Source of the DNA: Thermodesulfobacteriota bacterium
GTDB taxonomy: Bacteria > Desulfobacterota > Desulfobacteria > Desulfobacterales > SURF-7
Assembly: GCA_049320885.1 (NCBI GenBank)
Contig: JBMORA010000013.1
Location: 32,001 to 96,000, forward strand
DNA length: 64,000 bases
Reading direction: 5' to 3'
Within the stretch, counting starts at the first letter, position 1; each line of letters begins with the position of its first letter. The notes under the pieces were generated by a model that made no database searches, had not been told where the DNA came from, and saw only the letters and a list, made by a program, of their open reading frames with translations. Shown piece after piece: positions 15,897-52,828 of this stretch. Made by a program: the position numbers and the translations under genes.

Positions 15897-15942
15897 ATTT
15901 CCTCCTTCGTAAAAGGGGACAGCCGCATCGGCCGTCCCCCCG

Positions 15943-15973: not shown

Positions 15974-15974
15974 G

Positions 15975-19677: not shown

Positions 19678-19714
19678 ATTCTTTCCTCCTTCGTTGAGGA
19701 TTTATTCGTTGATG

Positions 19715-21733: not shown

Positions 21734-21845
21734 GTGAGGTTCCTCCTCATATTAATGATCAATTCATCCGCCCGTACATCGAAACATCGGCGGCGGGTAT
21801 CTTTTTTTCTGTCAGGCGGTTCACGCAAAGGTCATGAACTCCGCC

Positions 21846-23411: not shown

Positions 23412-23760
23412 TTTTGCCTCCTTATCGTTTTCGAACGATATTGCAGTTGAGAAACTTGTTGTAAGAACGTTGCCTATCGCGCCACCCGATAGGAGCTCCA
23501 TCCATCAATATAAATATTCCCCCTTTCATTAATAAAAAAGAATAATATGTCGACATCCGTTACAACGGATGGCTGTTTACGGACCGGCTTATTGTTTTCC
23601 AGCTAACCGATTTTCTTCGAGAAATTTAATGGAACAACCTCCCGGCAAAAAATACCAAATTATCTCCTTACATGCTGGCATAATATTTGTCAATAGAAGA
23701 CCGGAATCCTCCCGCACGGCACATTTTATTATAATTATTTAATATAACAGTAAAATATTG

Positions 23761-37456: not shown

Positions 37457-38163
37457 TCCGCCTCCTCGAAAATTTTCTGGATCATGCGGAGATGAAGAAT
37501 CGGCAGCAGTTTATTGATCACGCCGATGGCGTCCCTGGCCAGCTTCGAGGCCGTGTCCCGGTCGATTCCTTTTCCGGCGATCCGCTTGCTGAACAGCTCC
37601 ACTTCCTTGCGGGCCAGGAATTCGATCAGATCCAGATGGACCCGTAAATGTTCCACCTGGAAATTCAAGTCCTGGCTCAGACCGACCTTTCGCAGTTCCG
37701 CCACGATTTCGGTCAGGCGGATACACTCCCCATCGAAACGGCCTTCCGGACCGGGCAGGATCATTTCCAGCCGCACCATGTCCGCGATTTCCTCCGGAGT
37801 CAAACCCGTATGGTGCGACAGCTCCTCGGCGCTCATGGACGGGGGTTTGCCGTTGGAATGGCCGTTCTCGAAAAGCGGCTTGTCGATCTCCCGGACAAGG
37901 GCCCTGGAATCCCCGCCGTTTGAAAAATCCATATCCGCCAGCAAGGTTTTGATGATATCCAGCGGCAGAAAACGCGTTTTTTGCAATTCCTTGATCACCC
38001 GGATACGCTCAATATAGCTTTCGTCGTAATAGGCCATATTCTTATGGGTTTTCACCGGATGGGGCAGCACTCCCTGATGGATGTAGTAGCGGATGGTGCC
38101 ACCGCTGACCCCGGTGATCTCCGCGAGCTCTTTCATCTTCAACAATTTTTGCTTTTTCATCAC
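37453..38163 (-). CDS. MerR-family transcriptional regulator
   Basis: MKELAEITGVSGGTIRYYIHQGVLPHP winged HTH; second degenerate HTH (EELSHHTGLT). Confidence 0.88.
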   Translation of the reverse strand: MMKKQKLLKMKELAEITGVSGGTIRYYIHQGVLPHPVKTHKNMAYYDESYIERIRVIKELQKTRFLPLDIIKTLLADMDFSNGGDSRALVREIDKPLFENGHSNGKPPSMSAEELSHHTGLTPEEIADMVRLEMILPGPEGRFDGECIRLTEIVAELRKVGLSQDLNFQVEHLRVHLDLIEFLARKEVELFSKRIAGKGIDRDTASKLARDAIGVINKLLPILHLRMIQKIFEEAE

Positions 38164-38181: not shown

Positions 38182-39207
38182 CTATTTGCCGAACGGACAG
38201 ACCGGAAAACGGCATTCCGGGCAGTCCAGACATAACCCGCCGTGTCCCATAACGGCGAGTTCCGTCCGATCGACGGTTTCACCTGCCAGGATCCTCGGCA
38301 GGATCAGATCCAGCACGGTGGTTTTGTGGTAGATGCCGCAGGCGGGAACCCCCAGGACAGGAACGTCGCCGATATAGGCCAGCATGAACATGGCTCCGGG
38401 CAGTATCGGCGCTCCATACAACAATCGCCGGCCGCCGGCCTGCTGAACGGCCGCGCGGGTAACATCGTCCGGATCCACGGACATGCCTCCGGTGGTCAGA
38501 ATCAAATCCAGCTCGTCCTCAATGAAGGACAAGAGTCGTTTCCGGATGACCGCCGTGTCGTCCGTTACGATTTCAACCCGCAACACCCGGGCTCCGAGAT
38601 CGGTGAGCTTGCTTCTCAGGATCCCTTCGAAACGATCCGGAATCAAGCCCTCGGCGATTTCGCTTCCGGTGATCAGAATCCCCACCCGGGCCTTCCGGAG
38701 GGGCTTTATCGCCAGCAGCCCGGAGCAGTCCCCGGCGATATCCACGGCCTGTTCCACGATCTCCTTGCGAATCAGGAGCGGAATGGCGCGGGTGGCGGCG
38801 ATGATATCACCCTTGTGCACCACGGTGCCATGGTGTCGGGTGGCGCACATGACCTCGCCGAGCAGGTTGATGCGGGTCAGGGCGTCAATCTGGACGGCTA
38901 ACAGGCCGTCCTCCAAGGCGCAAAGCTTCAGCTTGCCCTCCACCGGCTCTCCATTCCAACCGACGCCGTCGCCGCAGAAGGCTTCGGCCATGACCATCAC
39001 CGCATTGTCCTCATGCAGGTAATCGTCCGGCTGATCGATGACAAAAATATGGCGCTTGCCGAGCCGTTGCAGGTGGCACAGATCGTCGTCGCAGATGCGA
39101 TGACCTTTTTTGAAGGCCCGGCCTTTGAATTCGCCGGGTCTGATTTCCGTGATATCATGAGCCAGAATGTGGCCCACGGCTTCCTCGGTTCTGATGGTTT
39201 TCAGCAT
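38182..39207 (-). CDS. Molybdopterin-binding protein (MoeA-like, MoCF_biosynth domain)
   Basis: LAHDITEI, AFKKGH, ATRAIPL, TGSEI, TGGMSVDPDDVT, PILPGAMF, C-terminal GGLCLDCPECRFPVCPFG. Confidence 0.85.
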   Translation of the reverse strand: MLKTIRTEEAVGHILAHDITEIRPGEFKGRAFKKGHRICDDDLCHLQRLGKRHIFVIDQPDDYLHEDNAVMVMAEAFCGDGVGWNGEPVEGKLKLCALEDGLLAVQIDALTRINLLGEVMCATRHHGTVVHKGDIIAATRAIPLLIRKEIVEQAVDIAGDCSGLLAIKPLRKARVGILITGSEIAEGLIPDRFEGILRSKLTDLGARVLRVEIVTDDTAVIRKRLLSFIEDELDLILTTGGMSVDPDDVTRAAVQQAGGRRLLYGAPILPGAMFMLAYIGDVPVLGVPACGIYHKTTVLDLILPRILAGETVDRTELAVMGHGGLCLDCPECRFPVCPFGK

Positions 39208-39301
39208 GGTTTCACTCAATCTGTTTCCGAACCGCTCAAGCGACCGCCCGGGAACCTTCCGTCTCCGGTGGTCGGCAACCCGTTCCCCGAGCGGTTACCG
39301 G

Positions 39302-41902
39302 TTACGGTTGTTCCACTGGTTCCGTCCGGCAGGGTTGATACCGAACCGTTGCCAGGGACGGGTCGTCCACTCCGTCAAAAATCAGTTCCTCGATATCCAC
39401 GCCGCCGGGGCCGCCCCAAAAGCATTGCAGGGCCTCGAAGGCCGGCTGTCCAGCCGGATTGGCGTTAAACAGCTGAAAGCCACTGTTGCCGTAGATATCA
39501 TTATATTCGAACACCATGGCGCCGTTCAAATAAATTCCGCCCACGCCATCATGGATCGCGGATTGATTGGCCACGACCCGGTTTCGGGTGAAGTTTTCAT
39601 TTTTAATACTGACTCCCCAAAAATTCAAGTAAGCGGCGCCACCATGTTTCCCGGATATCCGGTTGTCGCTGATCCGGTTGCGGTTCAGGGAGCTGTTGGC
39701 CTCGGCGAACACCCCGCCCCCCTGCTCCGCCCGGTTGGAAAAGATATCATTGTTTTCCACCAGTGCAAAGGTGGAAAATATGCCGCCGCCGTTTCCCCGG
39801 CACTGGTTGTTCTCAATCCGATTTTCCATCACGCCGGCCCTTGAGGCCCAGACGCCCCCGCCGTCGCCGCCGCCGCGGTTGTTTTCGATCCGGTTGTTCA
39901 GGATGTTGACGGCCGTATTGGAATGGTACCCATAGGCAAAAATGCCGGCGCCGTCCTCTTCGGCCTGGTTGTCCTCAATTGCATTTTCCTGGATTCGGAT
40001 CGGTCTGCTGCCATAGGCGTAAATCCCGCCGCCGTTGCTGGGACTCCGGTTCCGCATGATCCGGTTCTGGTGGATGGTGACGGCCGCGTTACGGATGGTG
40101 ATGCCGCTGCCAAGATTGTCGCGGATGAGGCACTGTTGAATCCGCGGCCCGGTTTCCTCCATGACGATTCCTCTGCCGTGTTCGATGATGCAATGCCGCA
40201 GAATTCCGCTTTGGTCGGCCGGCCGGTTTTCGCCGGCCGGATCGGAGGACGCCGCATCGGCGAGACTTTTCCGCTCGAAGAGCAGATGCCCCCAGGGCTG
40301 TTCGGACGAACCGGTAAAAAGGATCGGGCGTGACGCTTCTCCCTCGGCCTGCAGGACTCCTCGGGTTCGAATGATACTGCCCGGTGCAAGATGCAGAACG
40401 GCGCCGGGCAGAATTCTGACGGTTGCGTTTTCGGCGATGAACAGGTTGCCGGAAACGGTCAGCGGCCTTCCCGGGACCGACCCGATCACCTGGTCGGCGA
40501 CAATGGCGCCGGATAAAACCTCCGGTGATGGCGGCGGCAGCACTCGGTCGACCTGGGCCCCCCCGCCCGGGAGCGCCGGAGGCGCTTCGGTAATCCAGGC
40601 CATGGCCGGTGCCCGGCGATCCACCAGCCCGACGTTCGAATCCTTCAGCCAGTCGAAGATGAGGGCATCGATGATGGCCGGATCGGCGGTTCCCCAATAA
40701 TTTCCCATTGCGTTCAGATCCGTCGCCAGGCTATGCGTCTGGACCCTGACGGCATAACCGCCTGGAGCGATGATGTTGTTGCGCGTCAGCAGGGGATTGC
40801 CGGACACCGCTATGGTTTCTCCGGTTTGGGAATGGGGCGGGGTGTTACCCAGGAAGGTGTTGTTTTCAATGCAGCCTTCACCGAAATAAAACAGGCCGCT
40901 GCCTTTTCCCGGCGCCGCCTGATTGTCCGCTACGGTGTTGCCCTGGAGAATTCCTTTCTCCGCATACACCCCCCCGCCGCAATCCGCCCGGTTTTTTTGA
41001 ACCTGGTTGTTTTTCAAGGTGGAGCGCACGGCGTAAATCCCGCCCCCGCTATGATCGGCCTGGTTGTCGAACACCCGGTTGTCTTCAACCCGGCACGCAT
41101 AGGCTACCAAACCACCGCCGTAACGGTCGCTGCGGTTTTTTTCAATGAGATTGCGCCGGACGGCAACCGTGCCGGTATCATAGGCGAAGGCGAAAATGCC
41201 GCCGCCGCCGTCGCGCCCGCCGCTGGACTGATTGCCATACACGTGATTATCGGCGATCAGGAAGGACTTGTCGGTATAAACCATAATACCGGCTCCGTTG
41301 CCGGCGGCGGTATCCTGAACCGTGCTGTTGTCGCTGATCCGGTTCGCAATGATTTTTCCCGTACCGTATTCAATACGCACCGCCGAGGACACATGGTTGC
41401 GCAGGATGCAGTCCTCGATATGGACGGCGGCAGCCCGGATGGTGATTCCCCGGCCCCCTTCGATAATGCAATGCCGGAACAGATTGACGGGCAGGCTCCC
41501 GTCTTCCAGAAGCCAGCCGCCGAAGCAATCGAAATGATCCCAGGGTTCCCGGCCCAGCGGGCCGATACGAATCGGCTCCGCTGCCGTGCCTTCGGCGATG
41601 ATGCGCCCCTGGCTTCTGATCTGGACCCCGGGTGCCAGCAGCACCTGAACGCCGGGTTCGATGGTCAGGGTCACTTCCGGCAGGATGAAGATGTTCTCCA
41701 TGATCCGGCAGGGGCTGTTTCCCTTTTTCCAGACCGTATCGGAAACCAAAATGGTATTGAAACCGGGAATTTCGAGTGGCTGGACATGCTGCAATATCAA
41801 ACCGCGGCAGGCGGCGACCCCCAGAAGCAACAGGACGACGGGGATCACCCGGACCGCGGTCCGGCAAGGATTCCTGGTTGCATAGCGTCCGTATGACCGC
41901 AT
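39302..41902 (-). CDS. Lipoprotein with two tandem right-handed beta-helix modules
   Basis: GAGGTG RBS before MRSYGR; lipobox LLGVAAC; many N-x(3-5)-GGG-x-Y/F repeats; both halves end in (N/C)(Y/F)WG...IFD. Confidence 0.8.
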   Translation of the reverse strand: MRSYGRYATRNPCRTAVRVIPVVLLLLGVAACRGLILQHVQPLEIPGFNTILVSDTVWKKGNSPCRIMENIFILPEVTLTIEPGVQVLLAPGVQIRSQGRIIAEGTAAEPIRIGPLGREPWDHFDCFGGWLLEDGSLPVNLFRHCIIEGGRGITIRAAAVHIEDCILRNHVSSAVRIEYGTGKIIANRISDNSTVQDTAAGNGAGIMVYTDKSFLIADNHVYGNQSSGGRDGGGGIFAFAYDTGTVAVRRNLIEKNRSDRYGGGLVAYACRVEDNRVFDNQADHSGGGIYAVRSTLKNNQVQKNRADCGGGVYAEKGILQGNTVADNQAAPGKGSGLFYFGEGCIENNTFLGNTPPHSQTGETIAVSGNPLLTRNNIIAPGGYAVRVQTHSLATDLNAMGNYWGTADPAIIDALIFDWLKDSNVGLVDRRAPAMAWITEAPPALPGGGAQVDRVLPPPSPEVLSGAIVADQVIGSVPGRPLTVSGNLFIAENATVRILPGAVLHLAPGSIIRTRGVLQAEGEASRPILFTGSSEQPWGHLLFERKSLADAASSDPAGENRPADQSGILRHCIIEHGRGIVMEETGPRIQQCLIRDNLGSGITIRNAAVTIHQNRIMRNRSPSNGGGIYAYGSRPIRIQENAIEDNQAEEDGAGIFAYGYHSNTAVNILNNRIENNRGGGDGGGVWASRAGVMENRIENNQCRGNGGGIFSTFALVENNDIFSNRAEQGGGVFAEANSSLNRNRISDNRISGKHGGAAYLNFWGVSIKNENFTRNRVVANQSAIHDGVGGIYLNGAMVFEYNDIYGNSGFQLFNANPAGQPAFEALQCFWGGPGGVDIEELIFDGVDDPSLATVRYQPCRTEPVEQP

Positions 41903-41934
41903 GGCGGCACCTCGTTTGAAATGGGTTGACTGGT

Positions 41935-44184
41935 TTAATAACTGGTCCAATCCACATCGCTTCCGGGACGGACCGCTTCCATCTGTTGGTCTTCCTGGAT
42001 TTCGGGAACTTTGTCCATGAACATCAGGAAGCGGGCCGTGTACTCGATCCACATTTCCGGGTCCGGAATCCGCGGCACCTTGTCCGGGGTATAATACACA
42101 TACGGCATTTTGGTACCCCGGCCCGCATAGACATCCGGATCACGCAAAAAATTCTTGATCCAATCGAACCGCAGCCGAGACTTGGAGAGCATCAGGTTGA
42201 TGGACAGATCCTCGACCTTGACATCCGGGGGCAGCGTGCCGTCGAGGGCTACCGGATGGCATTGCATGCATTTGTCACTGAGCACGCGGTATTCCCCCAT
42301 CTGTATGGTTTCCGCCTCATAATCGGTTCTTACCGGGAGCAGCACGTAAGGGGCGCGGGGTTGAATCGATTCGGACGGCGGCGCCTGCAATACGAAATGC
42401 TCGATCAGTTCCGTTTTGTCCGCATAGCGGAAGGCAAACTCCGGCATGCGCATTTTCAGCCAGGGCCGCATCTCGGTGGGCCGGCTGAGAAACTGAAAAA
42501 GCCATTGGGGCTGGACCCGTTCGCCTTCGCCCAGCAGGCGGGGCGGAATCATGGATTTCAACGCCAGATGTTCGCTGATGCGCGGAGCCTGGTCTTCGGC
42601 CAGCTGATGACATCCCGCGCAGTTGTAATGGCCCAGGAGCCATGTGCCTTGCCGGCGGATGCGCATCTCGGGACGGGTGGCGGACAGGTAGCCGGCCGGC
42701 AGATCATAGGCGTCCTGGTGCAGGTAAAAAATACCAAGGGCCTCGATTTCGGCATCCCCAAAAACGGACTTGCGCACATAATCGGGCATTTTCAGGGGCA
42801 TGTCCTCGGTGGCAAACAGATCGGGCTGCCGGATCTTGGACAAGAGCCAATCCCATTTGGTGCGCGGCACGGTGGTGTCGTTGCCGAAGGGCAATTCTTC
42901 GAGACGCTTGTGGGCGACTTCCGCCACGTCAAGGCCGGCCTTGGGCAATTTGCTCAGGGATTCGATGGGGTGGCAGCCATAACAGCCGTAGGTCTGCACC
43001 GCCGACCGGCCTTCGGCCGCATCGCCTCCGGATAGCTGTTCCGGTAAAACCCCGCCGAGCCGTTGAGCGACCTGTTGCTCCCGCAAACCGTCGAGATAGA
43101 GGCACAAATGACCGATGTCTGCCTCCGTCAGCATCATTTTCGGCATGGCGGTCCGGGAAATGAGTGCGCCAGGATTGCGCAGCCAGGCGGCCGTCCAGCC
43201 GGAATCCAGCTTCAAACCGGCATCCGCCAGGTTGGGCACCCGGTCCGCCAGTGACCCCTGATCCGGCAGCACGCTGTGGCAGGCGATACATCCTTTGTCC
43301 GTAAACAGCGTTCGTCCCAGGTCCCTGTTTCCCGCTGGTTTTCCGCCGGTGTTTACCGCCGGATCGATGGTACGCAGGGTGGTCAGATAGGCGACGATAT
43401 GGCGCACGGTGTCTTCGGTCAGCCGAAAACCCGGCATAAGCGTCCGCCGGCGGATGGCCGAAGGTTCCGTTATCCAACTGAACAACCAGGCCGGAGTCCG
43501 GATCTTGAGGCCAATGCCGTCAAGGGCGGTGGACATGGGCGGCAGGTTTTCGGCCGCGGGAGTTGCGTGGCAGCCGTAACAGCCATGTTCGACAAAAAGG
43601 GTCTCGCCATAGGCAGCTTTTTCAGCCCCCGCAAGGCCGAAGGCGCTGTCATGGCATCCATAGCAAAGACCCTGGATAAGGTTCAAGGGCACGCGCGGCC
43701 TGGGCCAGTTGGCCTCATGGCCATGGGCTTTCGCACTGGTGAGCGCAGTTCCCTGGCCATGATGGCAGAGGGTGCATCCGAAGCGGTTGGGCGGGTGATG
43801 GTGGAGCATCTCGGCCGGATGGGAGCGCAGGGGAAGCTCCGCGTCTCGGAAAAGGGAATTCTCCATTCCCAGATGGCAGGTTCCGCACAGATCCCGGACA
43901 CCGGCGTCCGGCAGAAAAATCTGCCGGATGGTGACCTCCTCATCGGACCGGACCTCCTGATACAGCTTCCGCCATTTCATCAGGTCTCCCTCGTTTCCGG
44001 ACGCTTCGGCGGTTTCCACCTTTTCCCTCAGCCTCTGGGAATACGCTTTCCGGTAGTCCCGCTGAATGGCTTTCCACTCCTGCCGTTCGTCGGTCTTAAT
44101 GGTCGCCAGCACCAGGAGCAGCAAGCCGCTCGACAGGATCAGAAACAGAATGCGATGGGATGGTTTTGATCGAATGGGAGCCAT
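41935..44184 (-). CDS. Membrane-anchored octaheme cytochrome c
   Basis: N-terminal TM; CGTCH, CTLCH, CYGCH, CYGCH, CIACH, CYGCH, CAGCH, CMQCH. Confidence 0.92.
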   Translation of the reverse strand: MAPIRSKPSHRILFLILSSGLLLLVLATIKTDERQEWKAIQRDYRKAYSQRLREKVETAEASGNEGDLMKWRKLYQEVRSDEEVTIRQIFLPDAGVRDLCGTCHLGMENSLFRDAELPLRSHPAEMLHHHPPNRFGCTLCHHGQGTALTSAKAHGHEANWPRPRVPLNLIQGLCYGCHDSAFGLAGAEKAAYGETLFVEHGCYGCHATPAAENLPPMSTALDGIGLKIRTPAWLFSWITEPSAIRRRTLMPGFRLTEDTVRHIVAYLTTLRTIDPAVNTGGKPAGNRDLGRTLFTDKGCIACHSVLPDQGSLADRVPNLADAGLKLDSGWTAAWLRNPGALISRTAMPKMMLTEADIGHLCLYLDGLREQQVAQRLGGVLPEQLSGGDAAEGRSAVQTYGCYGCHPIESLSKLPKAGLDVAEVAHKRLEELPFGNDTTVPRTKWDWLLSKIRQPDLFATEDMPLKMPDYVRKSVFGDAEIEALGIFYLHQDAYDLPAGYLSATRPEMRIRRQGTWLLGHYNCAGCHQLAEDQAPRISEHLALKSMIPPRLLGEGERVQPQWLFQFLSRPTEMRPWLKMRMPEFAFRYADKTELIEHFVLQAPPSESIQPRAPYVLLPVRTDYEAETIQMGEYRVLSDKCMQCHPVALDGTLPPDVKVEDLSINLMLSKSRLRFDWIKNFLRDPDVYAGRGTKMPYVYYTPDKVPRIPDPEMWIEYTARFLMFMDKVPEIQEDQQMEAVRPGSDVDWTSY

Positions 44185-44190
44185 AACGCA

Positions 44191-44919
44191 CTAAACTGAA
44201 AAATGAGTGGTTGTAATAATGTATTTCAGGTGAAAAAAAATCCGCAGCAGCATTTTACCGGGAATGCTGAACATCAGAAGAATCAACACCCAGGCGAACA
44301 GGAATTTGAGGCGATCCGCCTGTTGGAACCGCTTCCTGGCATATAAAGCCGAAAGCAGCAGTCCCGCTCCGAAGTAAGCCGCTATCAGCGACAAACCGGT
44401 ACTGTTGGGCAGGCTGGACAGCGGCGGTTCAGGAGGCTTGACGATGCTCCAGTCCTCCCACGGCCAATAGAAATGCCAGCTGGGTCCGCGTAAAAACTGC
44501 CCGATGAGGATCAGGCCGAACCAGAGGGCATATCCGCAGAGGAAAATGGATATGGCCAGGCGCCGCCCTCGGAAACCATAACTGCCGACCCCTTTTGGAT
44601 TGGGGTCGATGTAAGGGAGACACATCAGTCCGAAAATGATGAAAAAGGGAAGGCACACGCCGGCGATCCACGGGTCGAAATACACCAGAACCTCCTGAAG
44701 ACCGACAAAATACCAGGGGGCTTTGGCCGGATTTTCCGTCCAATTGGGGTCGGCGATTTCCTTCAGCGGTGCGTCCACAAACAGGGACCAGACGCACAAA
44801 ACGATCATGGCGGCAAGAATCGCCAGCAACTCCTTATATACCAAATCCGGAAAGGTGAAGATTTCGTTTTCTTTTTCCGCTTCGTTCCGGATTTCAGAAC
44901 CCGTTATCAGTGTCTTCAC
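44191..44919 (-). CDS. Cytochrome b6-type complex subunit IV (PetD-like, extended)
   Basis: FTFPDLVYKE, APLKEIADP, ENPAKAPWYF (PEWY-equivalent), LPYIDPNP. Confidence 0.85.
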   Translation of the reverse strand: MKTLITGSEIRNEAEKENEIFTFPDLVYKELLAILAAMIVLCVWSLFVDAPLKEIADPNWTENPAKAPWYFVGLQEVLVYFDPWIAGVCLPFFIIFGLMCLPYIDPNPKGVGSYGFRGRRLAISIFLCGYALWFGLILIGQFLRGPSWHFYWPWEDWSIVKPPEPPLSSLPNSTGLSLIAAYFGAGLLLSALYARKRFQQADRLKFLFAWVLILLMFSIPGKMLLRIFFHLKYIITTTHFSV

Positions 44920-44984
44920 GAGCGCCTTCCTTGTTTCCTGTCATCAATTGCCGGATACCATATGCATCCAACCATCGGCCTCCG

Positions 44985-45734
44985 TTACAGTGGCCGCGAA
45001 ATGCCGCCGTCCTTGCGCACCCGCCAGAAATGAACCAGCATCAGGAGGGCGCACAAAAGCGGTAGAAGAACACAATGCAGCACATAAAAGCGCAACAAGG
45101 CATTCCCCCCCACTTCCGAATCCCCCAGCAGCAGATATTTCATGTCGTTGGCCCCATGAATCCCCAACAGTTCGTGAAACGGTCCCTCCACGCCCAAAAA
45201 CGGCGTGGCCGCCGCCATTTTCGAACCCACGGTGATGGCCCAGAAGGCGATCTGGTCCCAGGGGAGCAGATAACCGGTGAAACTGAGCAGCAGCGTCGTC
45301 ACCAGCAGGAGAACTCCCACCACCCAGTTGAATTCCCTCGGGGGTTTGTAGGAACCGGTCAAAAAAACCCGCAGCATGTGCAGCATGACCAGCAACACCA
45401 TGGCATGGGCCGCCCAGCGGTGCATGTTGCGCAGGAACAGGCCGAAACGGACCGTGTGCTCCAGCAGTTTCATGTCGAGATAGGCATATTCCGGCAAGGG
45501 CCGGTAATAGAACATCAGGAGAATGCCCGTGACGGTTTCCACCAGAAACATAAAGAGCGTCAGTCCGCCCAGGCAGAAAGTGAAACGCACCCTCGCCGCC
45601 GTTCGCGGAATGGTCACCGGATGCAGGTGCAGAAAGACGTTTGCCGAAACCGCCAGAGAACGATTTCGGGGCGTGTCCTTGAATGGATGGCGGAACACCG
45701 AACGCCAGAGCCGTGTCGCGGTTATCTTCTCCAT
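44985..45734 (-). CDS. petB: Cytochrome b6 (N-terminal cytochrome b)
   Basis: [50 protein letters not shown]-x14-H. Confidence 0.9.
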
Positions 45735-45746
45735 GGGCGCTTTCCG

Positions 45747-46478
45747 TTAGGGGGCCAGCAGGGTTTTCAGGTACCGGCAATCCGCTGCCAGAAACTCGTG
45801 GGTCAATTGAAAAAGCGCCTCGTAAAAGTGAAATACCTCCAGGCAGGCGTCCTCCGAGTCCGGCAGATTTTTCTCCAGCCGGCGGCAGCTTTCCAACAGT
45901 TGGCCGGTCCAAAGCAGGGGATGCCGTTCCAGAAAATCCTGCTCCGCCCTCATATAGGGAAACACATCCCGGTCGCTCTGCAGGGCCATTAATTCCTTGA
46001 AGGTCAAAAAATGCAGGAACTCCATTTGATAGCAGATATGATCCGGCCGGTCCTCCATGCTGCCTTCGCCGTAACTCAATCCGAAATGATTGTAAAACAG
46101 AATGAGCTCCCGGAAGATCGCCTGACGGTCTTCCCGGTAGAGCCCTTCCAACAGGGGTATCGGCGGACTGCCCGGTCCGGCTTCAAACAGCCGGATGAAT
46201 TCCACTTCGATGTTTTCATCGGAGACCGTTGCCAGTCCGCGGAGTCGGGCTTTTTCCTTTTCCCGCCACTCAAAAGGGTAGGGAAGATTTTCCGTCAGGC
46301 GACCCAGGGCCTGTTCCAGATCACCGTTTTGGGCCTGACGACGGAAGGGTTCGTCCGGATACCGGAATATTTCCGCGATGAGCGAGTACATGCGGCTGCG
46401 ATTGGCAGTGGTGATCTCCGCCTGGTTTTTCAGCTGGTCGGTAAAGAGAGCTTCCATGGAAATATCCTTTATGATCAT
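45747..46478 (-). CDS. TorD/DmsD-type molybdoenzyme chaperone (EbdD-like delta subunit)
   Basis: EVEFIRLFE, PLLEGLY, ILFYNHFGL, DRPDHICYQMEFLHFL, QDFLERH. Confidence 0.88.
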   Translation of the reverse strand: MIIKDISMEALFTDQLKNQAEITTANRSRMYSLIAEIFRYPDEPFRRQAQNGDLEQALGRLTENLPYPFEWREKEKARLRGLATVSDENIEVEFIRLFEAGPGSPPIPLLEGLYREDRQAIFRELILFYNHFGLSYGEGSMEDRPDHICYQMEFLHFLTFKELMALQSDRDVFPYMRAEQDFLERHPLLWTGQLLESCRRLEKNLPDSEDACLEVFHFYEALFQLTHEFLAADCRYLKTLLAP

Positions 46479-47608
46479 GTTTGTTTCGGTTTTCGCTGCA
46501 ACAGGGCCGGATCCTGTCCAAAAGGACCGAACATGGCCTTCCAGTCCTTGGCGATCAGAAGTTCCATCAGTTCGGATTTCCCGCCTTTTCGGACCTTTTC
46601 CATTTCCTGCTTCATGGTTGTGAGGGCCGTTTCGACCTCGGGGCCGAACAGGAACCGCAGATAGGCCATGGGAATGCGGTCCTTGGTGGGTTCGATGCGG
46701 CCCTGTTCATCAATGGCAGGCGGCGAAAGGGGCGGCACATAAAAAACATTGGGCTCCGTGCCGTATTCCGGATGAAGGGGCAGGGCCACCTTCCACACAT
46801 GGACGAGCTTGTGGATAATCCCCTGCTTGTCGTCCAGGAATCCCACGAAGCGCACCCGTCCGGTGCATTGACGCGCGCAGGCGTTGGCGACCTTTTCCTC
46901 CAGACGGGGATAGCAGAAGATGCACTTCATGCTCGTCTTGGTAAGGAAATTGAAGTAAATGACTTTATACGGGCAGGCCTCCAGGCAGAACCGGTACCCC
47001 TTGCAGCGTTCCTGGTCGATGACCACGGCACCGTCCGCTTCCCGTTTATAAATCGCATTCCGGGGACAGGCATCCACGCAAGCCGGATAGGCGCAGTGGT
47101 TGCAAATTCTCGGCAGGTAGAAATAAAAAGAGTTCGGATACTTCCCGCCGCCCTGATCTTCATCCCAATTCATACCCCAGTTGGGCGTGGAACCGTCCGG
47201 GTTGCGGGCCTCCAGATGTTTATCGCCGGCCTTGGAAGTAAACACTTCGTCGTAGTTGAACTGCCAATTGTCCCCGAAATCCGTGCGGGTGGGAAGCTGG
47301 CCTCTGACCGGATCCCGGACCTTGCCGCCGAAGAGCACCTTGTAGCCCCCGCCCATTCTTTCCCAGTCTTTGGGAGAGCCTTTCCCGGGTTGGGTGTTCA
47401 CCTTGTTCCACCACATATATTCGCGTCCCTCGATCTGGGTCCAGAGGGTTTTGCAGGCCATGGAGCATAGCTGGCAGCCGATGCATTTGTTTAGATCCAT
47501 CACCATGGCCACCTGTTTTTTGCATTCGCGCAATTTGTCCTTGGAGGCCTGAAATTCATTGGCCAATTCCTTCTCGCGATCCGATAGTTCTTTTTGATCA
47601 ACCGGCAT
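46475..47608 (-). CDS. EBDH/NarH-family iron-sulfur beta subunit
   Basis: CIGCQLCSMAC, CNHCAYPACVDAC, CKGYRFCLEAC (3Fe-4S type), CIFC...CARQC, NWDEDQG, LPLHPEYGTEPNVFYVPP; AGGAG RBS before MPVDQK. Confidence 0.93.
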   Translation of the reverse strand: MPVDQKELSDREKELANEFQASKDKLRECKKQVAMVMDLNKCIGCQLCSMACKTLWTQIEGREYMWWNKVNTQPGKGSPKDWERMGGGYKVLFGGKVRDPVRGQLPTRTDFGDNWQFNYDEVFTSKAGDKHLEARNPDGSTPNWGMNWDEDQGGGKYPNSFYFYLPRICNHCAYPACVDACPRNAIYKREADGAVVIDQERCKGYRFCLEACPYKVIYFNFLTKTSMKCIFCYPRLEEKVANACARQCTGRVRFVGFLDDKQGIIHKLVHVWKVALPLHPEYGTEPNVFYVPPLSPPAIDEQGRIEPTKDRIPMAYLRFLFGPEVETALTTMKQEMEKVRKGGKSELMELLIAKDWKAMFGPFGQDPALLQRKPKQT

Positions 47609-47619
47609 GTGAAGTCTCC

Positions 47620-48294
47620 TTATTCCAAAATTAGTTTCCGCCACTCCTTGCTGAAGGCCTTGACGCCGCCGCGTTCGCCGTTGCCCCCTTCCCATACCGC
47701 AAAGCCGATGACCGTTTCCGAACCCGGCGCAAGGTTCACCGCTTCCTCCTTGACGGAAAGCGGCCGGGCGATCACCACCCGCCAGGTCTTGCCCTCCCAT
47801 TTGGAGCCGGATACCAGGGACGATTCCTCGGTATACAGGGAGGTGGAAAGGCCGTGGGCGATCTGGTTTTTCGGCTTCTCCTCAAAATCCGGACGCCAGT
47901 ACCAGCTGTTGGTGGGAAAATCCTTGGAGCCCATTTCCTTGATTGGGGTTTGATCCGCCGATTTGAAGGGCAGCAGCAGGGAGACGCCGTCCGGGAAGGT
48001 GCCCACGTCACCGATGGTGTAATTGGGAGTTTCACTGCCCCACTCCAACCGGAAAAAAATATCCTGCCCGTTATGGGCCGCTTTGACCTGTAATTCCTTG
48101 ACGGCGCCGATGACCTTTTCATCGAAAGTCGCCTTTATATACGGTGACGGCTGGTTGGCCAGCGGAGTAGCCGCCGTTTCGACCAGCAGGCTGTTCAGCC
48201 GGCTCCATACGACCGCCCCGGGATCCAGCATTTCCTTGCGGGGGGCGGACAGTTTTTTGGCGATGATTTGCTGATTCTGGTTTTCATTGCTCAT
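47620..48294 (-). CDS. EBDH-family heme b gamma subunit
   Basis: VKAAHNGQDIFFRLEW, FPDG, EMGS (Met ligand), WYW, WRVVIARPL, FAVWEG.NGERGGVK (Lys ligand); no signal peptide. Confidence 0.9.
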   Translation of the reverse strand: MSNENQNQQIIAKKLSAPRKEMLDPGAVVWSRLNSLLVETAATPLANQPSPYIKATFDEKVIGAVKELQVKAAHNGQDIFFRLEWGSETPNYTIGDVGTFPDGVSLLLPFKSADQTPIKEMGSKDFPTNSWYWRPDFEEKPKNQIAHGLSTSLYTEESSLVSGSKWEGKTWRVVIARPLSVKEEAVNLAPGSETVIGFAVWEGGNGERGGVKAFSKEWRKLILE

Positions 48295-48342
48295 CTTTCG
48301 ATCTCCTTTTGAACCACCCTGTAAGTATTGGAAAGCGGCGCA

Positions 48343-51258
48343 TCAAACCTTCGCTTTTTCGACTTCCACGGCTATGGCGCGGTCCACCGGCTGCAGGCAC
48401 CAGTTCCAACGCCAGAAATTCAGATGTCCGTACCCTCCCGCCAGATCCAGCCATTTGATCATGCCGGGAATGGCAGCGTCATAGCTTTTCCATTTTTTGA
48501 ACATGTAGGGCTCCCAGGCGTGATAGACAATCACTTGTCCGGGCTGCGATCCTTTGCCGGGCTTGGCCGCGGCGGTGAGTTTCACATGGATGTAGAAATC
48601 GTCGAAATCATTATAGACATGTACGTAGTCATCATTTTTGATTCCACGTTTTTCCGCGTCCTCCGGGTTCATGAACATAAAGGGCCGGCCCTGGTGGGTG
48701 CGCAGCAATTGCTGCCCGGTGACCCAGATGGAATGGATGCTCCAGCGCTGATGCCCGCTGGTCATGGTGAGGGGGTAGTTCCCGCCGATGTTCGGATTGG
48801 GTTTGTGAACCGGCAGCTGCTCCTTGGCTTCCACAAACCAGGGATGATCGATATAGAACTGGATCCTGCGGTTATAGGTCGGGTAAGGGATTTTCTTGCC
48901 CGTATGCCAGGTCAGGGGAATGATGGGTTCATCGGGCTTGATGTCCGTCGCCAGGTTCATGCTCACCGCATCGAAGGGCGAAACCCCCACAAAGCGCACG
49001 ATGCCTTCCTGGCGCATACGGGCGACATTGGTTCCCTTGGGCAGGTTGCCCAGGAGAACGCTGGCCTCCAAGGCATCTTCCATGATTTCCTCGAAGTTAT
49101 TGGCTTCCATGGCCTGGACTTTTCCGAGATTTTTCAGGTTGATTTTCCGTCCGTCGCGGAGCGTGAACTCCGTCTTGCCTCGTTTCTCGGCCGCGGCTTC
49201 GATCTTTTCCGCCAGCATGCGGCAGATATCCCATTCCGGCTTGGACTCCCCGATGGGCTTGACAGCCTGATCGGTGAGGGTCAGCCAGGGCACATGGGGG
49301 GTGGGAAACCGGGTGTCCAGCTTTTCATAAAAGCCGGCGCCGGGGAGGGCGTAGTCCGAATACAACAGGGTCGTGCTCCAGCGGGTTTCGAAACCGAAGA
49401 TCAGGTTGAACTTGGGCCATAGCGAGGTCAGGATGTTTTTGTTGAATCCGCGGTTTTTTCTGGCCGGATTGGTGCCCATATAGAAATAGACCTGGGGCTT
49501 TTGATCCCTGGCCGGCTTGACGAAGCCGTCCCACCAGCCTTTGGTGATGGCCTCCTCCATATATTCCGGGAATTCCCGTTTCATCGTGGGGCAATGCCAG
49601 GACTTTCGATCCCAGGCGGCCTTGTAATCGGAATGGAAATACCAGAGGAAGTTCGGAACGGTCCAGTTCAGCTCCTTGCGATCCCGTTCACGTTCCAGGT
49701 GGATGGACAGCATTTCATCGGTCAGGGTCGGATCCAGCCGTTTGAAATGCGCCATGATTTTTTTATCCTTGGGAAGATGTTGGATGGTGGCCATATTGCC
49801 GATCCGCGGTTTCATGATCTGCAGCAGGGCACCCTCAAAAAGGGATTCGTTCCAGCCGCGGATGCCGCTGCCTTTCTTGCCGAAACTGCCGGTGAGCGCC
49901 AGCACCAGACACATGCTTCGCTCAATCAAATCTCCATGATAGTATTTCGGTGAATTCCATCCCACCATGACCTGGATATGCCCCATGGCATTGGCGCACT
50001 TCTGCGCCAGCCGCCGGATGGTGTCCGGGTGGGTATTGCACAGCTTGGCCGCTTTTTCCGGTGTATAGTCGCGGTTGAGCAGCTCCTTGAGCTCATTGAA
50101 CGTCGGTTGCACCTTGACGGCAGAGCCGTCTTTCAGTGTGACCGTGAAGACCCCGGTCAATGCCGGATCGCAGGACAGCGTCAGGGTTTCCAGGGCGGCC
50201 TTTACCGGTTTGCCGGTTTTGGCGTCCCAGTAGTAGAACTGATCGTCGCGTCCGCCCGCCTCCATATCGGCCACCCGCAAGAAACGCTGATTGTCCATCC
50301 GGACCAGCAGCGGCAGGTCGGTCTGCTCCTTGACAAAGGGCGTATCGATCTGGTTCTTTTCGATAAGCACCTGGCAGACAGCGAGTCCCAGGGCCGTATC
50401 GCCCCCGGGATCCACCGGCACCCATTCGTCGGCATGCATGGCGCTGGGGGAGTAATCCGGTGCGATGGTGATGACTTCCGCGCCGTTGTAACGCGCCTCG
50501 GCGATGAAATGGTAACAGGGAATCCGGGTATACACCGGATTCATGTGCCAGATCAGCAGGAGCTTGCCGAAAAACCAGCCGTCGGCGGAGTCCATGAACT
50601 GAAATTTGCCCATGGTTTCATACACTCCCCGGTTGAAATCGCCGATGGTGGTGTTCGTGTCGAGGGAAACCGCTCCCAGCAGCACGGAAAGACGGTGAAC
50701 GGCGATAATGTGCAGGTACCCGCCGTTGCCCGGACCGTTCTCGTTGATAATGGATTCCGGACCTTCTTTTTCCATGGCGTCCAGTATCCCTTCGGCGATA
50801 TCTCCCAGGGCTTCATCCCAGCTGATTTTTTTCCATTTGCCGCTGCCGCGTTCGCCCACGCGCTTCATGGGATATTTCAGCCGGTCCGGGTTGTACATCA
50901 TCAAGCTGTAAGAGGCGCCCTTCTGGCAGCCGCGGGGATTGAAATCCGGTCCGGTGGGATCCACCACCGGGTATTTGGCCGCCTGCTCCTCGCGAAAAAC
51001 CACCCCGTCCTTTGAATACACCCGCCAGAGGCAGTTGCCTGGATAACAATCCACCAGATGGGTGCCGAAGGTGACCCGGTCCCAGGTCCATTCCTTGCGG
51101 TGCAGATCTTCCCAGCGGCCGTAGTCCCATTCGTTGAGCACTTTTTCCGCTGCATTGGCATTACCACCTAGAAACCCCAAGGAATTCAATGACAGCATCA
51201 CGGCCGAGGCTCCCGTAATCTTTAAAAACTCCCGCCGATTCAGTTCCAATTGACGCAT
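48343..51258 (-). CDS. DMSO-reductase family type II catalytic alpha subunit, EBDH / steroid C25 dehydrogenase / alkane hydroxylase-like
   Basis: Tat RREFLK; WEDLHRKEWTWD; FS0 motif THLVDCYPGNC...NPRGCQKG; Asp ligand region DTNTTIGDF; NPVYTRIP; SGHQRWSIH; 971 aa, shorter than NarG. Confidence 0.9.
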   Translation of the reverse strand: MRQLELNRREFLKITGASAVMLSLNSLGFLGGNANAAEKVLNEWDYGRWEDLHRKEWTWDRVTFGTHLVDCYPGNCLWRVYSKDGVVFREEQAAKYPVVDPTGPDFNPRGCQKGASYSLMMYNPDRLKYPMKRVGERGSGKWKKISWDEALGDIAEGILDAMEKEGPESIINENGPGNGGYLHIIAVHRLSVLLGAVSLDTNTTIGDFNRGVYETMGKFQFMDSADGWFFGKLLLIWHMNPVYTRIPCYHFIAEARYNGAEVITIAPDYSPSAMHADEWVPVDPGGDTALGLAVCQVLIEKNQIDTPFVKEQTDLPLLVRMDNQRFLRVADMEAGGRDDQFYYWDAKTGKPVKAALETLTLSCDPALTGVFTVTLKDGSAVKVQPTFNELKELLNRDYTPEKAAKLCNTHPDTIRRLAQKCANAMGHIQVMVGWNSPKYYHGDLIERSMCLVLALTGSFGKKGSGIRGWNESLFEGALLQIMKPRIGNMATIQHLPKDKKIMAHFKRLDPTLTDEMLSIHLERERDRKELNWTVPNFLWYFHSDYKAAWDRKSWHCPTMKREFPEYMEEAITKGWWDGFVKPARDQKPQVYFYMGTNPARKNRGFNKNILTSLWPKFNLIFGFETRWSTTLLYSDYALPGAGFYEKLDTRFPTPHVPWLTLTDQAVKPIGESKPEWDICRMLAEKIEAAAEKRGKTEFTLRDGRKINLKNLGKVQAMEANNFEEIMEDALEASVLLGNLPKGTNVARMRQEGIVRFVGVSPFDAVSMNLATDIKPDEPIIPLTWHTGKKIPYPTYNRRIQFYIDHPWFVEAKEQLPVHKPNPNIGGNYPLTMTSGHQRWSIHSIWVTGQQLLRTHQGRPFMFMNPEDAEKRGIKNDDYVHVYNDFDDFYIHVKLTAAAKPGKGSQPGQVIVYHAWEPYMFKKWKSYDAAIPGMIKWLDLAGGYGHLNFWRWNWCLQPVDRAIAVEVEKAKV

Positions 51259-51280
51259 ATCCCCTCCTGATAAATTGACG

Positions 51281-51574
51281 TTACGGTTCCGCCGCCGCGA
51301 CCAGACGGATGGCGTTCCACGGGCATCCGGTCACATGACTGCTGTCCGGTCCGCCGGTTTGACAATTCCCGCAACCGCTGCACCGTGATGAATCCACCTG
51401 CATTTTCTTGAACGGATAATTCTCCGGGTCTTCCATCAGCCGCAGGGCGTCGCGGCTGCAAAAAATCCGGCAGATCGGGCTGCCGCCACAGCCGGTGCAG
51501 CCCTCCGTCACCCGGGCAATCTTCCTGGTCCCGGTGCGGAGGAGGCGCTTCTTTTCCGCCGGTCCCGGATCCAT
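51281..51574 (-). CDS. 2[4Fe-4S] ferredoxin with loop insertions
   Basis: CTGCGGSPICRIFC and CSGCGNC...GCPW; no export signal. Confidence 0.85.
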   Translation of the reverse strand: MDPGPAEKKRLLRTGTRKIARVTEGCTGCGGSPICRIFCSRDALRLMEDPENYPFKKMQVDSSRCSGCGNCQTGGPDSSHVTGCPWNAIRLVAAAEP

Positions 51575-52180
51575 TTACGCCTTCACCTGGATGTAAATTC
51601 GTTTTTCTTCAAACTCCGCGGCAGAATAAATCTTGCGGGTGTCCACGAGTATATACCCCTCCGCATCCTCACGGATGCTCAAACGATCCAGGGGTCTGGG
51701 TGCCGGTCCGGCGAACTGCCGGCCGTCGGAATGAAATTCGCTGCCATGGCATGGGCATTTGAAGGTTTTGATCCCGGGAAACCAATTCACCGTGCATCCC
51801 AGGTGGGTGCAACGGGCATACAGGGCATATATCCGGTCGGCTTCCCGGATGACGAAAAACCGGTGTTCGGTTTTGAAGCGGTCATCCACGGCGATCACCC
51901 CATGGGCGTCCGGCGCGCCTGCGGCGATGAATTCGGCCAGGGGACCGATTCTGAATTGGCTGGGAGGCTGGAACACGACCGAAGGGAAAAAAAATGTAAC
52001 GGCTTCAAAAGTCGCTGCGCCCGTGCACACAAAAAACGCGCCCCAGCCGCCGGCTGAAAGACATTTGTGCAGGAATTCCCGCCGCGACGCCGGCGGCAGG
52101 GAGGATCGGGCCTGGGCAGCCGCCCGAAGCAGACCCTCGATGTTCCCATTTCCCGGATTGAGCTCCCCACCATTTTTCAT
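51575..52180 (-). CDS. Rieske 2Fe-2S protein of the Rieske/cytochrome b complex
   Basis: Tat SRREFL plus TM anchor; CTHLGC, CPCHGSEF, GPAPRPL. Confidence 0.93.
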   Translation of the reverse strand: MKNGGELNPGNGNIEGLLRAAAQARSSLPPASRREFLHKCLSAGGWGAFFVCTGAATFEAVTFFFPSVVFQPPSQFRIGPLAEFIAAGAPDAHGVIAVDDRFKTEHRFFVIREADRIYALYARCTHLGCTVNWFPGIKTFKCPCHGSEFHSDGRQFAGPAPRPLDRLSIREDAEGYILVDTRKIYSAAEFEEKRIYIQVKA

Positions 52181-52564
52181 GACGACCTTTCCGCCCTCGC
52201 GGTTTCGTCTTCAACCGGGCGCTGCCTGAACCGAACGGCTCGTCCCGGCGACCGGTCCCTTCCTGTTTCGGCAGGCATGCCGCAGAACCCGCCAGCGCCT
52301 TGCCGAACAACCCATCGCCCTTGTGCGCCGGGCATTAGTGAATAGTTTAGCTTTTTACTTTGCAAATAGATCAGCTCGAATCTCTTTGTCAAGAAAAAAA
52401 TATGGAATGAATATCCAATTAAATAACAAAAACTTGAAAAACCGCCCGCCCGGAGCGGGACTCCAGCCCGCGATAACTCATAGTTGACATATTCACTATA
52501 TGATAATATGAAGGGACCAGCTGTTCCACCCGATGACGCTTTTCCATATGAAAGGAGGGTTTCC

Positions 52565-52828
52565 ATGACATCCGCCAGGATTTCCATTCTCGGCATCACC
52601 GGCCTGTCCGCGCTTTTCGCCCTGGTTTACGCCGGTCTTTTCCTTGCTGTCTCCAACATATCCTATTGGTATTTCACCCATACATTTCTATATGCCGAAC
52701 TCTTCAACAATCCCGGATATCACCTGTACGACTGGCTCTGGAATCTTGTGGGAACCGCCGCCACCCTGGTCTGCACCTTTTTCATCGAATTCCTGCGCGG
52801 ATTTTTCCGCCGTCGAACAACGGTCTGA
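52565..52828 (+). CDS. Small two-TM hypothetical membrane protein
   Basis: AAGGAGG RBS; two hydrophobic stretches; basic C-terminus. Confidence 0.65.
   Translation: MTSARISILGITGLSALFALVYAGLFLAVSNISYWYFTHTFLYAELFNNPGYHLYDWLWNLVGTAATLVCTFFIEFLRGFFRRRTTV

Follow-up and report, generated by a model that had tools for sequence, protein, structure and literature searches.

A conserved gene cluster joining a putative Ahy-type molybdenum hydroxylase to a Rieske/cytochrome b6/octahaem cytochrome c module in a sulfate-reducing Thermodesulfobacteriota bacterium

The subject of this analysis is a gene cluster at positions 39302-52180 (minus strand) of a 64,000-nucleotide stretch of DNA (positions 32,001 to 96,000 of contig JBMORA010000013.1, assembly GCA_049320885.1; hereafter, the window) from a Thermodesulfobacteriota bacterium, in which the genes of a molybdenum enzyme related to ethylbenzene dehydrogenase (EBDH) lie between those of a Rieske protein and a cytochrome b6. 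An initial annotation had described ten tightly packed genes here, separated by gaps of -4 to 65 nt, and listing of the open reading frames (ORFs) together with Pfam scans bore this out; working from the Rieske end, the gaps calculated from the coordinates are 0, 22, 48, 11, -4, 12, 65, 6, and 32 nt. The ten genes, with protein lengths in amino acids (aa), are as follows.

51575..52180, minus strand: Rieske [2Fe-2S] subunit (201 aa; PF00355)
51281..51574, minus strand: ferredoxin-like protein with 2x[4Fe-4S] (97 aa; Pfam Fer4_7)
48343..51258, minus strand: catalytic alpha subunit with molybdenum-bis(pyranopterin guanine dinucleotide) (Mo-bisPGD), type II dimethyl sulfoxide-reductase family, by sequence in the AhyA-like clade (971 aa; PF00384 and PF01568)
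47620..48294, minus strand: gamma subunit, EB_dh haem b protein (224 aa; PF09459)
46475..47608, minus strand: beta subunit, four-cluster iron-sulfur protein (377 aa; PF13247/Pfam Fer4_11)
45747..46478, minus strand: delta, TorD/NarJ-type assembly chaperone (243 aa; PF02613)
44985..45734, minus strand: cytochrome b6, four-helix half of a split cytochrome b (249 aa; PF00033, 144.6 bits)
44191..44919, minus strand: subunit IV, three hydrophobic helices (242 aa; weak PF00032 match)
41935..44184, minus strand: membrane-anchored octahaem cytochrome c (749 aa; 8 CxxCH)
39302..41902, minus strand: lipoprotein with two NosD-like right-handed beta-helix domains (866 aa; PF13229)

The gene content originally assigned to the locus stood, but some of the calls were revised. 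The true frame of cytochrome b6 is the 249-aa one at 44985-45734, and a longer ORF overlapping it (44944-45912) has no Pfam match; the beta subunit most likely starts at 47608 and the beta-helix protein at 41902; and the same-strand run was found to continue past the beta-helix gene into three further genes, which are considered below.

The molybdenum enzyme had been placed in the EBDH family, and the analysis agrees. The best solved relative of alpha is EbdA (2ivf_A; 746 bits, residues 6-969), compared with 498 bits for the type II enzyme of 4ydd/5e7o, which we take to be a perchlorate reductase, 183 bits for NarG, and 142 bits for NxrA. Alpha has a twin-arginine translocation (Tat) motif, NRREFLK, at aa 7-13, and its FS0 motif (H67-x3-C71-x4-C76...C111) is invariant in alignment A1. 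D207 aligns with EbdA Asp223, presumably the Mo ligand, and K438 with EbdA Lys450, which we assume to be the active-site Lys. Every clade examined has the Asp, and the EBDH-like clades have the Lys as well, except for five of six Sterolibacterium-group rows, which have Arg; the Lys is not kept in the outgroup pair of NarG and L168. Alignment of gamma with EbdC (2ivf_C; 98 bits) places Met and Lys at the positions of EbdC Met108 and Lys201, presumably the ligands of haem b. Gamma exceeds the crystallised EbdC chain by only about nine N-terminal residues, which leaves no room for a signal peptide, and none of 26 orthologue N-termini has a hydrophobic leader; gamma must therefore exit the cytoplasm folded, together with alpha. 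Of the NCBIfam type II subfamily models, that of beta is passed (TIGR03478; 504.8 vs 480.7), and those of alpha, gamma, and delta are narrowly missed, as detailed below.

Two trees of alpha were built. The FastTree set comprised 96 alphas of at least 850 aa from the fetched loci and the window, after two duplicate loci, shorter rows, and rows below 300 bits had been dropped; the quick IQ-TREE run (LG+G4) used 49 rows hand-picked to represent each clade. Both were made without the named references CmdA, S25dA, DdhA, SerA, PcrA, NxrA, and AhyA of Desulfococcus oleovorans Hxd3, and L184, which carries EbdA's own four motifs, served as a proxy for EbdA. A 12-residue peptide shared by the window alpha and EbdA, used as a search pattern, found 34 loci, including L184 and the Sterolibacterium rows, and a degenerate pattern aimed at EbdA itself had no match in genome contigs. 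The clade that contains the window alpha has 100 SH-like support with FastTree and 100 SH-aLRT with IQ-TREE, and it also holds alphas of metagenome-assembled genomes (MAGs) titled Desulfosudaceae and Desulfococcus sp. 4484_241, together with L102; 27 of the 28 bc-linked alphas fall within it. The EbdA proxy is sister to a larger group that includes this clade, the Sterolibacterium rows branch deeper and outside it, and a branch with 97 support separates off Ideonella ClrA and Haloferax NarG. In both trees, the window alpha is thus nested among EBDH-like sequences, and the check that had been proposed, whether alpha would instead group with oxyanion reductases, came out in favour of the original assignment. 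Both trees place alpha with L102, the only one of 193 loci that matches the forward primer published for ahyA without a mismatch. We assign alpha from its sequence to the EBDH family and, within that, to the clade of the putative alkane hydroxylase AhyA.

The second component of the cluster is a Rieske/cytochrome b complex of the b6 type. The Rieske protein has a Tat motif (RREFL) and one hydrophobic anchor (aa 40-58), and its two boxes read CTHLGC and CPCHGSEF; CTHLGC and CPCHGS were found in 26 of 26 sequences (the window and 25 related loci), the second box having S-x-F in 24 and S-x-Y in two. Its best NCBIfam matches are b6f-type Rieske models, all below cut-off. Cytochrome b6 scores best in the PDB against cyanobacterial and chloroplast b6 (157.7-166.4 bits, vs ~90 bits for bc1 cytochrome b). 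C54, the haem ci/cn site within FTFCLGG, and H105, H119, H220, and H235 align with the b6 positions for haem ci and for haems bL and bH, and all five are invariant in 27 of 27 sequences. Between helices C and D, at about aa 181-198, there is a 14-residue insertion relative to cyanobacterial b6, and five of its residues (G184, P185, F186, N196, and D197) do not vary among the 27 sequences of alignment A3. Subunit IV is encoded by a separate gene, i.e., cytochrome b is split, and its Qo loop reads APWY, without an acidic residue, rather than PEWY, by which this motif is usually named; A67, W69, and Y70 are invariant in alignment A4, and P68 is present in at least 90%. The octahaem cytochrome c has an N-terminal anchor, four CxxCH motifs within aa 100-206, and the others at aa 299, 401, 522, and 639; eight motifs were counted in 25 of 26 sequences (again the window and 25 related loci), the remaining one being cut by a contig end, and a sequence search of the PDB found no solved relative. 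The split cytochrome b and the haem ci Cys are shared with the group A2 b6f-like complexes (cyanobacterial b6f, Geobacter ExtO/P/Q/S, and those of anammox bacteria), from which the window complex differs in its octahaem c subunit, in APWY, and in the 14-residue insertion.

Two further proteins accompany this complex. The ferredoxin has a basic N-terminus with neither a signal peptide nor a hydrophobic stretch, and its eight Cys (CxxCx5Cx3C and CxxCxxCx12C) are invariant in alignment A2 (n=24). It was present in 23 of 26 other loci with a strong cytochrome b6 match (at least 75% query coverage), always directly behind the Rieske gene. No NCBIfam family matched it, and its PDB matches are to generic ferredoxin domains only. 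Complex prediction with alignments for the ferredoxin against cytochrome b6, subunit IV, and Rieske gave 0.03 against a mark of 0.32, which speaks neither for nor against contact. The ferredoxin may work in the cytoplasm with the haem ci side, leave the cell as a Tat passenger, or serve in maturation, possibly in the manner of NapF. The beta-helix lipoprotein at the end of the cluster is conserved; it reaches 54.8 against the NCBIfam NosD family (cut-off 300), its atlas neighbours are NosD/Beta_helix clusters, and any role assigned to it would be conjectural.

The two components are inherited together. Among 47 fetched loci with an alpha at least 57% identical to that of the window, 22 have the Rieske, gamma, beta, delta, b6, subunit IV, and octahaem c genes in the window's order, with the ferredoxin seen in 21 of them and the beta-helix gene in 20; eight are cut by contig ends in a way compatible with that order, and nine have flanks too short to judge. 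The other eight are orphan alphas (L105, L114, L115, L116, L119, L125, L146, and L150; orphans were also noted for G067 and G174), around which no partner gene occurs for 2 kb or more upstream and 6 kb or more downstream. The assemblies of all the orphans (contig-name prefixes CAYVDS, CAYVQZ, JACRIR, CAXXDV, and CP070770) also have a full cluster. Some genomes thus have one full cluster and one to four orphan alphas; that of the window has a single alpha. Several steroid C25 dehydrogenase alphas of Sterolibacterium are likewise said to share beta and gamma subunits. A second order, alpha-gamma-beta-delta-Rieske-ferredoxin-b6-subunit IV-octahaem, was found in L124 and in L129, of which L129 is titled Myxococcales; as the ferredoxin gene is directly behind the Rieske gene here too, it travels with Rieske and not with alpha.

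Co-occurrence was assessed in 301 genomes of the order, 222 of them of high quality. Alpha (E<=1e-100) was found in 15 of the 301 (13 of the 222), and a cytochrome b6 of at least 76% identity in exactly the same 15. In 14 of these, the two genes share a contig and lie a few kb apart; the remaining assembly is 65% complete and consists of 580 contigs. The other 286 genomes have no orthologue of this cytochrome, their best b6 being 64% identical. The window's genome contains a single copy each of Rieske, cytochrome b6, subunit IV, octahaem c, gamma, and EBDH-type alpha. The module also occurs in MAGs titled Poribacteria and Myxococcales. From the synteny of 22 loci and the 15/15 co-occurrence, the molybdenum-enzyme and bc genes are one conserved unit, as had been supposed from the window; chance adjacency of two unrelated operons is ruled out by the recurring order and by the co-occurrence across 301 genomes. 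For functional coupling, this is about the strongest evidence that genome comparison can give; physical contact between the two parts would go beyond it.

The first reading had also asked whether the same order occurs at loci of the ahy type, and it does. All ten genes in the same order, with flanking LpoB and MoCF genes, were found in L004 (alpha 92% identical) and in L005 (91%), the latter from a record titled 'MAG: Desulfosudis oleivorans'. A complete genome of another family (G129; 3.9 Mb, single contig; alpha 70-72%) has, at locus L199, two MerR genes and then Rieske-ferredoxin-alpha-gamma-beta-delta-b6-subunit IV-octahaem-beta-helix. The L005 title is no proof about the type strain, and its species label may be loose, because the window alpha has two mismatches to the ahyA primer that L102 matches exactly, matches of at least 90% to alpha in an order-wide search were confined to two genomes of the window's genus, and alphas of other-family genomes of the order are only 71-73% identical to that of the window. 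In summary, the window system resembles the Ahy type in its alpha clade, its subunit set, and the ten-gene order of L005 and L199; it differs in the two primer mismatches and in belonging to a genome of a different family than G129.

Ahy of D. oleovorans Hxd3 is a proposed, and still putative, alkane C2 hydroxylase, first recognised in the genome and then implicated when cells grown on alkanes were studied by proteomics; the passages devoted to it describe a three-subunit enzyme and do not mention Rieske or cytochrome b genes (PMC3653055, PMC7803848, PMC9118554). Conversely, the Rieske/cytochrome b complex of D. oleovorans has been assigned to group A2, with a split cytochrome b and the haem ci Cys, in an account whose treatment of that group is silent on an adjoining molybdoenzyme (PMC3509893, Baymann et al. 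2012). A search of the open-access (Creative Commons/bioRxiv) literature, main texts without supplements, found no description of a link between Ahy and a Rieske/cytochrome b complex. The ahy neighbourhood may be shown in Heider et al. 2016 or related reviews.

Complexes of this general kind are more widespread in the order than the initial annotation allowed. It had regarded bc complexes as rare in sulfate reducers, and this was not borne out in the order: cytochrome b/b6 homologues are present in 107 of the 301 genomes, and each of the five next-best cytochrome b6 loci inspected (L194-L198) has Rieske, cytochrome b6, and subunit IV genes, accompanied in L194-L197 by a large multihaem cytochrome c. 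In L198 (G255), what comes after the bc module is instead a fusion of a multihaem cytochrome with an EB_dh domain. In L195 (G139) and L197 (G226), the genes after the module encode a monohaem cytochrome c, an EB_dh gamma, beta, delta, and a Tat-dependent, 1148-aa Nar/Nxr-like alpha, which is only 25% identical to the window alpha; these genomes were alpha-negative in the search, and their arrangement is a second kind of bc-molybdoenzyme cluster. In L196 (G286), c-type cytochromes, a di-haem cytochrome c peroxidase, and a Pyr_redox_2/4Fe-4S flavoprotein follow; no such partner was found for L194 within the stretch fetched.

Downstream of the beta-helix gene, the same-strand run extends to 36221 with gaps of 82, 18, and -4 nt, and the whole unit is therefore probably thirteen genes long. 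The additional genes, together with the region upstream of Rieske, are listed here.

38182..39219, minus strand: molybdenum-cofactor-biosynthesis (MoCF)-domain protein (345 aa; PF00994)
37453..38163, minus strand: MerR-family regulator, candidate regulator of the cluster (236 aa; PF13411)
36221..37456, minus strand: MoeA molybdopterin molybdotransferase (411 aa; PF03453/PF00994/PF03454)
52181..52640, no strand: AT-rich non-coding stretch upstream of Rieske, presumed promoter region (sequence inspection)

An ORF at 52177-52599 (140 aa) upstream of Rieske has no Pfam or other family match. Searches for a sigma-54 consensus with at most two mismatches found none upstream of Rieske (21 in the whole window vs 32.6 expected), and sigma-70 and terminator scans gave matches at chance level. 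The MoCF gene also trails the cluster in L004 and L005. The MerR-family protein is a candidate substrate-responsive regulator. Its homologues (38-54% identity) lie directly upstream of Rieske in ten loci (L084, L086, L087, L093, L095, L121, L107, L108, L112, and L157); its position thus differs in the window, where it is downstream and amid molybdenum-cofactor genes.

The window lies on contig C13 of a genome of 5.6 Mb in 68 contigs, with a completeness of 98%. The organism had been taken for an apparent sulfate reducer, rather than a denitrifier without dsrAB, and this was upheld. dsrA is present (627 bits vs a cut-off of 393), with a weaker second match to the same model beside it that is probably dsrB, as is aprA (957 bits); two MqnA-family genes indicate the futalosine route to menaquinone; and a QrcB equivalog, the menaquinone reductase of sulfate reducers, lies in the window itself (4542-6707, minus strand; 518 bits vs a cut-off of 440). 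As dsrA, aprA, QrcB, and MqnA are all present, the genome is that of a menaquinone-type sulfate reducer. Beside QrcB is a 264-aa protein with multiple 4Fe-4S motifs (3689-4483, minus strand), probably QrcC. The only COX1-family gene of the genome encodes a 745-aa protein and adjoins a hybrid-cluster protein gene; we infer that it is a quinol nitric oxide reductase rather than a cytochrome c oxidase. No cytochrome c oxidase and no other obvious high-potential acceptor for cytochrome c was found in the genome; peroxidases and nitrite reductases were not searched for as electron sinks.

Other features of the genome were recorded. A complete carbon monoxide dehydrogenase/acetyl-CoA synthase (CODH/ACS; Wood-Ljungdahl) cluster with the corrinoid-protein activase RACo occupies 15006-25716 (minus strand) of the window; it marks the organism as a complete oxidiser and could supply reduced ferredoxin. 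At 10588-14000, the GC content falls to 0.47-0.51, and an IS200-like Y1 transposase and an MT-A70 methyltransferase are encoded there, possibly on a small mobile insertion. The genome has six genes for glycyl-radical enzymes (799-983 aa), on contigs C46, C28, C9, C17, C53, and C25 (L206-L211), one of them scoring 991.7 bits against the (2S)-3-sulfopropanediol dehydratase model (cut-off 1000). An alkylsuccinate synthase was looked for among them, and none of the six resembled one in the comparisons made: all six score best against PFL2/dehydratase-type models, and the two that were compared with structures gave 174 and 216 bits for MasD and 166 and 179 for BssA, vs 287 and 510 for their best dehydratase/lyase-type relatives.

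Beyond co-inheritance, we infer a physical association of the two parts, a substrate, a direction of electron flow, and roles for the ferredoxin and the lipoprotein. We give an even chance to the cluster being one functional unit in which an Ahy-type hydroxylase works with the sole Rieske/b6-subunit IV complex of the genome running in reverse into menaquinone. The enzyme would be a periplasmic, Tat-exported Mo-bisPGD/FeS/haem b protein of the AhyABC(D) type that carries out water-dependent hydroxylation of non-activated alkyl C-H bonds, with n-alkanes or similar hydrocarbons as the most likely substrates; hydroxylation of n-alkanes with water by the window enzyme is putative. Electrons would pass from the substrate to Mo, through the FeS chain of alpha and beta to the haem b of gamma, which is Met/Lys-ligated and hence probably of high potential, and on through octahaem c to Rieske. 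The b6-type complex would then act as a cytochrome c:menaquinone oxidoreductase, its Q cycle running backwards at the expense of the proton-motive force, and two electrons per hydroxylation would reach the menaquinone pool that feeds sulfate reduction. Reverse flow into menaquinone is plausible and the most likely of the readings considered, if unproven.

The need for such a device is energetic. The Met/Lys-ligated haem b of EBDH has a potential of ~+250 mV and the ethylbenzene/1-phenylethanol couple one of ~+30 mV, compared with ~-74 mV for menaquinone, -60 mV for adenosine phosphosulfate (APS)/sulfite, and -116 mV for sulfite/sulfide. Electrons therefore would leave the enzyme ~300 mV above the quinone used for sulfate reduction. 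A backward Q cycle would cost a few protons per hydroxylation, which would be small against the electrons available from a long alkane. As a functional precedent, the PetI bc1 complex of Acidithiobacillus ferrooxidans reportedly runs in reverse, using the proton-motive force to push high-potential electrons into quinones; the likeness is in this uphill function of a Rieske/cytochrome b complex, and the bc lineage, the quinone, and the electron source are said to differ. Rieske proteins have been grouped by potential into SF (200-230 mV), SY (300-350 mV), and AY/GY/GF (120-160 mV) classes (PMC3509893, Fig. 3 legend). That of the window is in the SF class, i.e., above the AY/GY/GF class.

Several points weigh against this reading. 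Sequence does not tell in which direction the electrons run, and both the activity and the substrate of the Ahy clade are putative. With respect to EBDH itself (EbdABC(D) of Aromatoleum aromaticum, 2IVF), the window enzyme shares full-length similarity of alpha, similarity of gamma, the Tat signal, the FS0 motif, the Mo-ligand Asp, Lys450, the Met/Lys haem ligands, and a delta chaperone, but the EbdA/B/C/D equivalog cut-offs were missed widely (alpha 798/2000, beta 459/740, gamma 115/400, delta 108/360). At the broader level of the type II subfamily models, alpha (918.8 vs 984.75), gamma (138.7 vs 169.85), and delta (TIGR03482; 134.6 vs 152.3) fall just below cut-off. The position of EbdA His192 is Pro176 in the window alpha, within a near-invariant GPGNGG motif; the corresponding APHVHAG of EbdA was seen only in the proxy rows L184 and L185. 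Gamma without room for a signal peptide and the embedding of the genes in a bc operon are further differences from EBDH, which in denitrifiers is said to pass its electrons to a soluble cytochrome c. The best curated name for cytochrome b6 is ExtP, whose cut-off was narrowly missed (275.7 vs 290), whereas those of ExtQ (46.1 vs 150) and ExtS (39 vs 100) were missed widely. Related bc modules stand beside a Nar/Nxr-like enzyme in L195 and L197, and the nearest architectural precedent, described below, is believed to work in the forward direction. A search of the 98%-complete genome for a Hydantoinase_B-type (acetone/acetophenone-carboxylase-like) gene was negative, so that the published downstream route via ketone carboxylation is without an obvious enzyme here; neither this route nor the fumarate route is evident in the window's genome.

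A last such point concerns sulfate. It had been argued at first that the arrangement exists to make hydroxylation possible with sulfate, and in this form the argument was not supported. Of five other module carriers tested, only one has dsrA above the cut-off; among the remaining four, one record is titled 'chromosome' and another (G302) has three COX1-family matches over cut-off. The module thus extends beyond sulfate reducers and did not arise as an adaptation to sulfate reduction in itself, a use to which it is put here at most.

Of the alternatives, two seem unlikely. One is that the cluster encodes a respiratory reductase working forward, from menaquinol through Rieske/b6, octahaem c, and the gamma haem to a Mo site that reduces an oxyanion or oxide. 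It would conserve energy and would fit carriers without dsrA, the name ExtP comes from a selenite/tellurite reduction operon, and L195 and L197 show related bc modules beside Nar/Nxr-like alphas. Its closest parallel is pHME322 of Haloferax mediterranei, where a type II enzyme with an EB_dh gamma, a TorD-type chaperone, Rieske, and cytochrome b occur together in the order Rieske, cytochrome b, small ORF, NarG, NarH, EB_dh-type protein, TorD chaperone; the Rieske protein there is of the low-potential GF type, and the complex is thought to run from quinol to nitrate (PMC3509893, in its discussion of that cluster). The Haloferax system differs from that of the window, however, in an alpha that is 31.5% identical and an outgroup in the trees, in an unsplit cytochrome b (1458-nt gene), in gene order, and in having no c-type cytochrome, ferredoxin, or beta-helix protein. 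The placement of alpha tells against a forward reductase: alpha is nested in the EBDH-like group with ClrA and NarG across the 97-support branch, and its score against EbdA exceeds those against 4ydd/5e7o and NarG. Moreover, several carriers are MAGs titled for tar biofilms (L097, L101, and L102), and the related Hxd3 enzyme has been implicated in alkane-grown cells (PMC3653055).

The other, which we also consider improbable, is a shared cytochrome: the hydroxylase would feed octahaem c and, through it, some other periplasmic acceptor, with Rieske/b6 acting as an ordinary quinol oxidase on the same cytochrome. Carriers without dsrA, or with COX1-family matches such as those of G302, could offer a high-potential sink for these electrons, and the variant order of L124 and L129 shows the molybdenum and bc genes as separable blocks. 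In the window's genome, though, the search for a cytochrome c oxidase was negative within the limits given above, and co-occurrence in 15 of 15 genomes, with 0 of 286 elsewhere, exceeds what a shared wire would need.

More doubtful is a ferredoxin-assisted confurcation, in which a cytoplasmic ferredoxin would supply low-potential electrons to haem ci and the b haems, and menaquinone would be reduced at Qo by one low- and one high-potential electron at little or no cost in proton-motive force. In its favour are a ferredoxin without a signal peptide that stays beside Rieske even where the molybdenum genes lie elsewhere, the haem ci Cys invariant in 27 of 27, the flavoprotein after the bc module of L196, and CODH/ACS in the same window as a possible source of reduced ferredoxin. 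Gamma, however, also has no signal peptide and must nevertheless ride with alpha, and the ferredoxin could do likewise; nor does any computed result tie the ferredoxin to cytochrome b6. It is a long shot, too, that the cluster represents a respiratory supercomplex of a new kind, combining hydroxylase and b6-type confurcation, with orphan alphas of some genomes plugging into a shared beta/gamma/bc module and so widening the range of substrates.

The Ahy enzyme type in alkane-degrading sulfate reducers and the b6-like complex of D. oleovorans are already in print. What is added here is their strict co-inheritance, the ten-to-thirteen-gene unit, the conserved ferredoxin and haem ci site, and the orphan alphas, as well as a wider pattern in which b6-type modules of the order are repeatedly attached to periplasmic type II molybdoenzymes. 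The means by which strict anaerobes attack saturated hydrocarbons other than by fumarate addition are, to our knowledge, not settled, and Ahy, still a putative hydroxylase, is the leading candidate. The standing energetic objection to it is that EBDH-type electrons are released far above the menaquinone and sulfate-reduction couples. That an Ahy-type enzyme is inherited with a dedicated Rieske/cytochrome b6/octahaem module, a ferredoxin, and a lipoprotein suggests a route for these electrons to the quinone pool and turns the objection into a testable question. The core idea will not surprise specialists, but the biology is important and directly testable, and, where anaerobic hydrocarbon degradation is surveyed, the ten-gene set is a more specific marker than ahyA by itself.

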